Sequence record: NC_001416.1
Strand: one strand, 5' to 3'
Source of the DNA: Escherichia phage Lambda
DNA: 48,502 nucleotides
How positions within the stretch are numbered: position 1 is the first letter of the stretch; each line of letters opens with the position of its first letter. Below, in pieces: positions 46,459-48,502 of the stretch. Made by a program: the position numbers and the translations under genes. The notes beneath the pieces were generated by a model. It ran no database searches. It worked only from the letters and a program-made list of their open reading frames with translations, and was not told the origin of the DNA.

Positions 46459-46752
46459 TTATTGTGAGCAATACACACGCGCTTCCAGCGGAGTATAAAT
46501 GCCTAAAGTAATAAAACCGAGCAATCCATTTACGAATGTTTGCTGGGTTTCTGTTTTAACAACATTTTCTGCGCCGCCACAAATTTTGGCTGCATCGACA
46601 GTTTTCTTCTGCCCAATTCCAGAAACGAAGAAATGATGGGTGATGGTTTCCTTTGGTGCTACTGCTGCCGGTTTGTTTTGAACAGTAAACGTCTGTTGAG
46701 CACATCCTGTAATAAGCAGGGCCAGCGCAGTAGCGAGTAGCATTTTTTTCAT
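46459..46752 (-). CDS. bor: Bor, outer-membrane lipoprotein (serum-resistance moron)
   Basis: ORF track 46459..46752 (97 aa); lipobox LLITGC. Confidence 0.93.
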   Translation of the reverse strand: MKKMLLATALALLITGCAQQTFTVQNKPAAVAPKETITHHFFVSGIGQKKTVDAAKICGGAENVVKTETQQTFVNGLLGFITLGIYTPLEARVYCSQ

Positions 46753-47041
46753 GGTGTTATTCCCGATGCTTTTTGAAGTTCGCAGAATCGTATGTGTAGA
46801 AAATTAAACAAACCCTAAACAATGAGTTGAAATTTCATATTGTTAATATTTATTAATGTATGTCAGGTGCGATGAATCGTCATTGTATTCCCGGATTAAC
46901 TATGTCCACAGCCCTGACGGGGAACTTCTCTGCGGGAGTGTCCGGGAATAATTAAAACGATGCACACAGGGTTTAGCGCGTACACGTATTGCATTATGCC
47001 AACGCCCCGGTGCTGACACGGAAGAAACCGGACGTTATGAT

Positions 47042-47575
47042 TTAGCGTGGAAAGATTTGTGTAGTGTTCTGAATGCTCTCAGTAAATAGTAATGAATTAT
47101 CAAAGGTATAGTAATATCTTTTATGTTCATGGATATTTGTAACCCATCGGAAAACTCCTGCTTTAGCAAGATTTTCCCTGTATTGCTGAAATGTGATTTC
47201 TCTTGATTTCAACCTATCATAGGACGTTTCTATAAGATGCGTGTTTCTTGAGAATTTAACATTTACAACCTTTTTAAGTCCTTTTATTAACACGGTGTTA
47301 TCGTTTTCTAACACGATGTGAATATTATCTGTGGCTAGATAGTAAATATAATGTGAGACGTTGTGACGTTTTAGTTCAGAATAAAACAATTCACAGTCTA
47401 AATCTTTTCGCACTTGATCGAATATTTCTTTAAAAATGGCAACCTGAGCCATTGGTAAAACCTTCCATGTGATACGAGGGCGCGTAGTTTGCATTATCGT
47501 TTTTATCGTTTCAATCTGGTCTGACCTCCTTGTGTTTTGTTGATGATTTATGTCAAATATTAGGAATGTTTTCAC
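47042..47575 (-). CDS. Hypothetical protein (177 aa), AT-rich right-end accessory gene
   Basis: ORF track 47042..47575; no motif recognised. Confidence 0.7.
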
Positions 47576-47737
47576 TTAATAGTATTGGTTGCGTAACAAA
47601 GTGCGGTCCTGCTGGCATTCTGGAGGGAAATACAACCGACAGATGTATGTAAGGCCAACGTGCTCAAATCTTCATACAGAAAGATTTGAAGTAATATTTT
47701 AACCGCTAGATGAAGAGCAAGCGCATGGAGCGACAAA

Positions 47738-47944
47738 ATGAATAAAGAACAATCTGCTGATGATCCCTCCGTGGATCTGATTCGTGTAAAAAATATGCTT
47801 AATAGCACCATTTCTATGAGTTACCCTGATGTTGTAATTGCATGTATAGAACATAAGGTGTCTCTGGAAGCATTCAGAGCAATTGAGGCAGCGTTGGTGA
47901 AGCACGATAATAATATGAAGGATTATTCCCTGGTGGTTGACTGA
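47738..47944 (+). CDS. Hypothetical small protein (68 aa), divergent from the 47042..47575 ORF
   Basis: ORF track 47738..47944; coding status uncertain. Confidence 0.4.
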
Positions 47945-48108
47945 TCACCATAACTGCTAATCATTCAAACTATTTAGTCTGTGACAGAGCCAACACGCAG
48001 TCTGTCACTGTCAGGAAAGTGGTAAAACTGCAACTCAATTACTGCAATGCCCTCGTAATTAAGTGAATTTACAATATCGTCCTGTTCGGAGGGAAGAACG
48101 CGGGATGT

Positions 48109-48303
48109 TCATTCTTCATCACTTTTAATTGATGTATATGCTCTCTTTTCTGACGTTAGTCTCCGACGGCAGGCTTCAATGACCCAGGCTGAGAAATTCC
48201 CGGACCCTTTTTGCTCAAGAGCGATGTTAATTTGTTCAATCATTTGGTTAGGAAAGCGGATGTTGCGGGTTGTTGTTCTGCGGGTTCTGTTCTTCGTTGA
48301 CAT
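48109..48303 (-). CDS. Hypothetical ribbon-helix-helix (Arc/MetJ-like) small protein
   Basis: ORF track 48109..48303 (64 aa); NIRFPNQMIEQINIALEQKGSGNFSAWVIEACRRRL resembles the Arc/CopG RHH pattern. Confidence 0.45.
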   Translation of the reverse strand: MSTKNRTRRTTTRNIRFPNQMIEQINIALEQKGSGNFSAWVIEACRRRLTSEKRAYTSIKSDEE

Positions 48304-48502
48304 GAGGTTGCCCCGTATTCAGTGTCGCTGATTTGTATTGTCTGAAGTTGTTTTTACGTTAAGTTGATGCAGATCAATTAATACGATACCTGCGTCATAA
48401 TTGATTATTTGACGTGGTTTGATGGCCTCCACGCACGTTGTGATATGTAGATGATAATCATTATCACTTTACGGGTCCTTTCCGGTGATCCGACAGGTTA
48501 CG

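Follow-up and report, generated by a model that had tools for sequence, protein, structure and literature searches.

The window analysed here is a stretch of 48,502 nucleotides that terminates in the lambda cos sequence; its right end shows 100% identity with phage lambda and with close relatives such as HK629, HK630, DE3 and lambda imm434. Between positions 47042 and 47944, the list of open reading frames contains a minus-strand ORF of 177 aa with a GTG start (47042-47575) and a plus-strand ORF of 68 aa with an ATG start (47738-47944), arranged divergently just as an earlier note on this DNA had described them. The minus-strand ORF is lambdap78, a DUF1398 protein of the YbcV/YdfO type, and the plus-strand ORF is lambdap79, that is, YbcW. 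Both are known, already annotated genes in named families, so the earlier note's word "unassigned" does not apply: p78 belongs to a Pfam family with a homologue of solved structure, and p79 is the reported trigger of the Vulcan defence system. The same note was right in placing bor next to the pair and in calling this DNA more AT-rich than the lysis cassette; the GC content of the region is 0.364 overall (0.326 for p78 and 0.391 for p79) against 0.505 for the lysis genes S-R-Rz and 0.499 for the lambda genome. A hairpin followed by a T-run, found by a consensus scan beyond the p78 stop, is a candidate for the 3' end of a monocistronic p78 transcript. An ORF of 40 aa at 47530-47652 was considered as a possible third gene. 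Searches of the region gave no match in Rfam and no notable repeat.

Table 1 Features at the right end of the window.
Feature	Position	Strand	Basis and remarks
bor	46459-46752	-	Pfam Lambda_Bor; left neighbour of p78
Terminator-like hairpin, then T-run	46960..46985	-	Consensus scan; 3' of p78 stop, 5' of bor
DUF1398 module	47023..47527	-	Gene with 19 bp of 3' flank and 75 bp of leader; ends of blastn blocks
lambdap78 CDS, corrected	47042..47452	-	136 aa and stop; Pfam, PDB, AF2, dN/dS, 411-nt annotations
41-codon extension of the 177-aa reading	47453..47575	-	Stops in Qin-type and DETEC-P61-type copies, no Shine-Dalgarno, no homology cover
p78 Shine-Dalgarno GGAAGG	47460..47465	-	8 nt upstream of ATG 47452
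PdhR box-like palindrome	47514..47530		ATCTGGTCTGACCTCCT; outer edge of DUF1398 module
YbcW module	47579..48090	+	118-159 bp of leader, gene and 146 bp of trailer
p79 Shine-Dalgarno GGAG	47727..47730	+	7 nt upstream of ATG; RBS in lambda imm434 record
lambdap79 (YbcW)	47738..47944	+	68 aa; phrog_657, K-12 identity, frame conservation

Several lines of evidence bear on where p78 starts. In the 177-aa reading, the matches to Pfam, PHROG and the PDB set in only at about residue 37-49, and none of them covers the 41-codon N-terminal extension. Inspection of the sequence found no Shine-Dalgarno before GTG 47575; such a sequence does precede ATG 47452 (Table 1), and the curated lambda imm434 record annotates a ribosome-binding site there, at 47460-47463. 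In the Qin-type and the DETEC-P61-type copies of the locus, the extension is interrupted by in-frame stops 20-21 codons upstream of the ATG, and its DNA, including GGTCAGACCAGAT, is conserved in both copies despite these stops. The gene is 411 nt, or 136 aa, in every E. coli genome inspected that was annotated by PGAP, and likewise in the imm434 record. The extent of 177 aa taken over by the earlier note is thus very probably wrong, the conserved start being ATG 47452 and the product 136 aa long, and the extension is most likely untranslated DNA that forms the 5' leader and regulatory region of p78. With this start, the divergent intergenic space becomes 285 bp (47453-47737) rather than the approximately 160 bp of AT-rich DNA that had been supposed; the 162-bp spacer between the 177-aa and 68-aa ORFs has a GC content of 0.42 and is in fact the least AT-rich part of the region.

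The leader contains a palindrome resembling a binding site of PdhR. It differs by one mismatch from the PdhR box that gSELEX located between ybcV and ybcW of the DLP12 prophage, zero matches being expected by chance, and its core is kept in the Qin-type and DETEC-P61-type copies. A simple scan for the sigma-70 consensus gave no convincing promoter in the leader of either p78 or p79.

Remote-homology searches and structure prediction, which had been proposed as a check, were run for p78. The protein matches Pfam PF07166 (DUF1398/YdfO-like) over the whole profile (positions 1-119 of 119; E 2e-46, 157.2 bits, the curated gathering score being 22 bits) as well as PHROG 413, and is about 80% identical to E. 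coli YdfO, whose structure was solved by solution NMR (PDB 2HH8, E 4e-71), and 98.5% identical to YbcV of DLP12. Like p78, YdfO of the Qin prophage and YbcV are encoded in the interval from the lysis genes to cos, antisense to the late genes, and their leaders have the GGTCAGACCAGAT box in common with that of p78; nothing essential differs, but the 177-aa reading, given in the style of the lambda RefSeq record, is 41 codons longer than the family. The protein is basic (pI about 9), its maximal Kyte-Doolittle hydropathy over 19 residues is 0.43, and a check of hydropathy and sequence found no signal peptide and no hydrophobic or membrane segment; p78 is a small soluble cytoplasmic protein.

When modelled by AF2 from its single sequence, p78 reached a pLDDT of only 47. 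With an alignment of 11 sequences in two clades, which added a Klebsiella DUF1398 clade of 35-40% identity, the model reached a pLDDT of 82 and a pTM of 0.74, and its topology is (helix-helix-strand-strand-strand) x2, that is, a tandem alpha-alpha-beta-beta-beta unit, an internal duplication that is undetectable by BLASTP self-comparison (E 1.8). Foldseek superposed the model on 2HH8 with an E of 6e-19, TM scores of 0.84/0.90 and an rmsd of 1.7 Å. Beyond 2HH8, Foldseek returned no PDB chain at E <= 1e-3 and the viral models of BFVD gave none at this threshold either, the best TM score there being below 0.4. The fold predicted for p78 is an orphan with no informative neighbour, and to our knowledge no biochemical function of DUF1398 is known despite the structure solved in 2006.

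Across six clades (lambda, YdfO, E. albertii, YcgX, Klebsiella and Salmonella), the residues F11, R15, F23, L27, Y35, I36, Y37, T41, N43, V65, Y91, L95, A96, A98, G99, V100, F101, W103 and R112 of p78 are invariant, and they include the motifs Y-I-Y...T-x-N and L-A-x-A-G-V-F-[RK]-W. Judged from dN/dS values of 0.12-0.31, the gene is under purifying selection, and an open frame of 136 codons at its GC content has a chance probability of about 2e-5, so that p78 exceeds chance on length alone. Paralogues of DUF1398 also occur at non-phage loci, in E. coli as ycgX between bluR and iraM and in Klebsiella beside yedEF; a search with the Klebsiella protein as query returned its own clade only. One DUF1398 match of 48% identity turned out to be a decayed pseudogene of ydfO in a single strain. 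For p78 and p79, the matches in PADLOC were all insignificant.

Turning to p79, the protein matches phrog_657 over its full length (1-68 of 68; E 7.5e-48) and is 100% identical to YbcW of the K-12 prophage DLP12, the two genes differing by one synonymous change and having the same neighbours and orientation. It is acidic (pI 4.9); Pfam gave no family above threshold for it, and the PDB no relative. The family is very narrow. Scanned exhaustively with HMMER, 1.84 billion representatives yielded only 199 matches, and the 16 representatives inspected were mostly frameshifted reads of lambda itself. The homologue search was dominated by contigs of about 3.5 kb that carry near-identical copies of lambda full of errors, and many representatives of the 50% clusters were such frameshifted reads. 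The sole natural distant relative is a singleton of 60% identity (P0198) that lies in an AlpA/Zn-ribbon element. Among 50,697 phage records, p79 occurs in 38, nearly all of them lambdoid Escherichia phages.

The length of p79 is insignificant by itself (P about 0.01), and the gene is overlapped on the opposite strand by ORFs of 68 and 79 aa. Comparison of homologous loci indicates that the frame of p79 is the conserved one: the antisense frame in register with it gains a stop in two of them (L048 and L049), the third codon position of p79 takes 11 of 23 and 13 of 25 substitutions, and the C-terminal 45 or so residues are nearly invariant. With dN/dS values of 0.34-0.61, p79 too is under purifying selection.

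How the two genes are distributed argues against treating them as a pair or cluster, as the earlier note had done. The blastn blocks shared with the Qin-type locus and with an E. albertii locus stop exactly at 47527. On the other side, those carrying ybcW cover 47620-48090 in PhiR63_1 and 47579-48090 in mEp460 and end likewise at 48090 in the DETEC-P61-type locus, and a YlcI/cos module begins at 48094/48141. Since homology breaks between 47527 and 47579/47620, each gene comes with a separate leader, and the PdhR box is part of the DUF1398 module. The gene orders found are gnsB - ydfO - ynfO - nohA without ybcW (Qin-type), gnsB - DUF1398 - ybcW-like - a DUF1441-family gene and the large terminase gene without ylcI (DETEC-P61-type), and gnsB - ybcW - cos without DUF1398 (PhiR63_1 and mEp460); in every architecture seen, ybcW shares its strand with the terminase genes and lies just upstream of cos.

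The region is conserved in related prophages. By megablast, 3,383 of 5,426 complete E. coli genomes (about 60%) match the 903-bp region, but both genes occur together, in a place covering at least 80% of the 903-bp query, in only 1,402 of the 5,426; Qin-type matches span positions 1-486 of the query and ybcW-only matches span 588-903. From these comparisons, p78 and p79 are separate mosaic modules with sharp borders that assort independently and probably do not constitute a functional pair. A toxin-antitoxin pair was also considered and rejected, the orientation being divergent and the genes occurring independently.

What has been reported on expression concerns mainly the near-identical copies in DLP12. 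In a pdhR mutant, the mRNA of ybcV was down 10-fold and that of ybcW 8.9-fold (PMC7660256); Hha binds near ybcW and induces it 17-fold (PMC2408971); and overexpression in BL21(DE3) of T4 MotB, which alters H-NS-dependent repression, raised both ybcV and ybcW more than 1000-fold (PMC7827196). In addition, ybcW makes up a convergent excludon with ylcI (PMC12288877). For the Qin gene ydfO, the promoter responds to stress and an ionic liquid is a strong inducer; the same paper cites YdfO overexpression as increasing oxidative-stress resistance (PMC4077768). The ybcV gene was found among clones that altered glycogen content on overexpression (PMC2853380). In lambda itself, a CRISPRi study scored p78 as nonessential with an EOP of about 1.9 and p79 as "essential" though it is known to be dispensable, which its authors attributed to a polar effect of the roadblock on the PR' late transcript (PMC10695390). 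Neither gene is mentioned in Osterhout 2007 or in a single-phage profiling paper of 2026.

The position of the genes relative to the late operon suggests different timing for the two products. The PR' late transcription unit includes the p79 gene on its sense strand, and the protein would be produced during lytic growth from that transcript, although it is unneeded for plaque formation. In this respect lambda differs from the defective DLP12, in which the ybcW copy is reported to depend on PdhR and Hha/H-NS. Transcription of p78 runs opposite to that of the late genes, so that the prophage state or the early phase of infection is the probable time of its expression; leftward transcription would start in the gene's own leader, which carries the PdhR box, and would be under host control rather than late. 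From the overexpression phenotypes and the genomic logic we infer that p78 may act as a moron-type modulator of host physiology, probably by binding a host partner or a small ligand.

The proposal that these are horizontally acquired accessory genes, or morons, holds in part. Like bor and lom, the established morons of lambda, p78 and p79 are accessory, dispensable, lower in GC than their surroundings (0.326 and 0.391 against 0.505 for neighbouring phage genes) and variably present in lambdoid phages: Qin is without 47528-48140, PhiR63_1 and mEp460 are without DUF1398, and the DETEC-P61-type locus is without ylcI. The bor gene, like p78, is transcribed against the late transcript. On the other hand, bor and lom encode envelope proteins with demonstrated prophage expression and phenotypes whereas p78 is cytoplasmic, and p79, in sense orientation within the late operon, does not need a promoter of its own. 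Thus p79 is no classic moron: it lies on the sense strand of the PR' late unit, and blocking it by CRISPRi has a polar effect on essential late genes. Taking these observations together, region 47042-47944 is probably best explained as two independent, dispensable accessory modules in the mosaic right end of lambda that extends from the lysis genes to cos.

The earlier note had also called the function of the genes unknown. For their native roles this is still largely true, but p79 has meanwhile been connected with a defence system. According to a preprint (bioRxiv 10.64898/2026.09.04.749371), all seven lambda-vir escapers of the NIR-NADase Vulcan had lost lambdap79, likely via recombination with Qin; co-expression of p79 with Vulcan was toxic; and Vulcan responded to p79 by depletion of NAD+. 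Our blastn comparison of Qin with lambda fits this report: homology is 84% over 47023-47527 and 98% over 48141-48502 with nothing between, so that Qin lacks exactly 47528-48140 between two blocks of homology and recombination would yield the reported deletion of p79. Thus p79 is reported, in this single preprint, to be an activator of the Vulcan defence. As with other phage activators of abortive-infection defences, p79 alone reportedly suffices for activation and escapers lose the gene; what differs is that the K-12 host itself, in its DLP12 prophage, encodes the trigger in identical form. Other Vulcan-sensitive phages are without p79, according to the same preprint, an indication that Vulcan senses several different proteins.

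In another reading of the locus, p79 is expressed late and inhibits either a host function or a different defence, Vulcan guards against that activity, and p78 is possibly a prophage-encoded defence or anti-defence factor. Consistent with it, many triggers of abortive infection are phage counter-defence proteins, and p79, a small acidic protein that would be produced during lytic infection, is dispensable under laboratory conditions, is under purifying selection and is sufficient to activate Vulcan, as the preprint reports. However, the variety of proteins that Vulcan seems to sense, the lack of any hint from PADLOC, Pfam or structure for p78 or p79, and the very narrow family of p79 speak against it, and we consider this reading rather unlikely. 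Equally doubtful is its fuller form, in which p79 would be a late effector that inhibits a host pathway or another immune system, an activity against which Vulcan guards, and p78 a regulator-like protein of the prophage, wired to PdhR, that couples the pyruvate and stress status of the host to tolerance phenotypes. If true, lambda would have at its right end two genes unrecognised for 40 years, one for counter-defence and one for lysogenic conversion.

A further possibility is that p78 and p79 form a functional unit after all, namely a divergent, co-regulated pair with one bidirectional promoter region under PdhR and H-NS control and with cooperating products. DLP12 has a single PdhR gSELEX peak and box between ybcV and ybcW, the two mRNAs fall about equally (about 10-fold) in the pdhR mutant and rise together on MotB overexpression, the genes are kept adjacent in the 1,402 E. 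coli genomes mentioned above, and p78 is basic and p79 acidic. Nevertheless, most genomes with either gene are without the other (Qin with ydfO and ynfO, and the ybcW-only places), PhiR63_1 and mEp460 have ybcW after gnsB and no DUF1398 gene, the homology blocks break between the genes with the PdhR box on the DUF1398 side, and Vulcan escapers that are without p79 retain a DUF1398 gene and are viable. A functional unit is therefore improbable, although the joint response of the DLP12 copies to PdhR, MotB and H-NS could reflect co-regulation and a functional link where both genes are present.

Database records call p78 a "putative envelope protein" (older RefSeq) or a "head protein" (current RefSeq phage records and PHROG 413), and apart from these labels themselves nothing speaks for a structural virion or cell-envelope protein: p78 is encoded antisense to the late operon, has no signal peptide, lipobox or transmembrane segment and a maximal 19-residue hydropathy of 0.43, has a close homologue that was soluble in solution NMR and a fold unlike any viral or capsid structure searched, is missing from phages with lambda-like terminase genes (PhiR63_1 and mEp460), has paralogues at the non-phage loci named above, and leaves plating unaffected when knocked down by CRISPRi. 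Both labels are unsupported, and a head or envelope role is highly improbable. It is just as improbable that p78, p79 or both are decaying, non-functional remnants hitch-hiking next to cos, a reading that could appeal to their dispensability for plaque formation, to the decayed ydfO of one strain and to a p79 no longer than chance ORFs of this DNA but that is largely refuted by the purifying selection on both genes, the frame-specific conservation, the regulated transcription of the DLP12 copies, the activity of the p79 protein against Vulcan (preprint) and the well-defined fold of p78.

The account of two independent accessory modules has its main value as a correction of the annotation of lambda: p78 should be read as 136 aa rather than 177, the DNA formerly counted as its N-terminus is most likely a conserved regulatory leader with a PdhR box, the head and envelope labels are unsupported, and what looked like one locus is two modules. 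The link between p79 and Vulcan makes the role of YbcW experimentally approachable, and with it these results may serve as a pointer to the native roles of the DUF1398 proteins and of YbcW.

We found DNA 100% identical to the lambda right end in MAGs and in records labelled 'genomes' or 'plasmids' from taxa that are not related, including Pseudomonas, Kitasatospora, Brevibacillus, Arcanobacterium, Staphylococcus, Synechocystis and Xanthomonas, as well as in a record named 'Campylobacter phage CJLB-4'. In these taxa it lies on contigs of ~3.5 kb or ~48.4 kb. All these copies look like contamination by sequencing-control DNA. The records concerned are loci L006-L045, plasmid matches H174-H184, proteins P0001-P0120 and phage match H28, and such copies swamp protein-cluster searches with frameshifted pseudo-variants.

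Features of the lambda right end (window) and of compared loci.
Feature	Location	Strand	Basis or context
Candidate 40-aa ORF, TTG start, p78-p79 intergenic	window 47530-47652	+	CDS with RBS in lambda imm434 record
YlcI/YnfO-family small ORF, 64 aa	window 48109-48303	-	Pfam DUF3950, E 2e-20; NCBIfam NF041551; phrog_949
Terminator-like hairpin with T-run	window 46960-46985	-	between p78 stop and bor promoter region
ydfO pseudogene, strongly decayed	L043 4001-4397		multiple stops and frameshifts
P0198, distant YbcW homologue	L046 273-464		Logan SRR35261337 contig, 26 kb

The start of the 40-aa ORF coincides with the border of the DUF1398 module, where it overlaps the PdhR box, and its frame is unbroken in 86%-identical homologues (loci L005 and L030); this open frame and the imm434 annotation make it a candidate gene. 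On the other side of p79, the 64-aa ORF adjoining cos is a third conserved small ORF. With a basic N-terminus and the stretch 'IRFPNQMIEQINIALEQKGSGNFSAWVIEA', its product looks like a possible ribbon-helix-helix protein. It is convergent with p79, and in K-12 ybcW-ylcI is listed as an excludon (PMC12288877). The ORF belongs to a separate mosaic module (48094/48141-48502), which lambda and the Qin prophage have in common at 98% identity.

Downstream of p78, the terminator-like hairpin could, judging from its sequence, mark a boundary that keeps p78 in a different transcription unit from bor. The label 'head protein' (PHROG 413) for DUF1398 proteins has spread across RefSeq records of lambdoid phages (HK629, HK630, DE3, O276, ev099, Kati and Chlobot), but the evidence gathered here gives it no support, nor any to 'putative envelope protein', the earlier label that it replaced. 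The decayed ydfO, found in a Qin-like element of a single E. coli strain, ECGI0523, implies that DUF1398 copies are sometimes lost through decay.

The only natural distant homologue of YbcW that we found, P0198, is 60% identical to it across the conserved C-terminal part. Its gene lies outside the lambdoid lysis-cos context, and its neighbours, encoding AlpA, Zn_ribbon_11/DUF7828 and Rep-like domains, suggest a satellite-like or other mobile element. The ybcW of the DLP12 prophage of K-12 (locus L003, 4990-5196) encodes a protein identical to that of p79 (window 47738-47944). Because Vulcan-expressing MG1655 is viable, expression of the DLP12 copy must be too weak to trigger Vulcan, which would be consistent with silencing by H-NS/Hha. 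The reported activator of Vulcan is also encoded, as YbcW, by the K-12 host itself.
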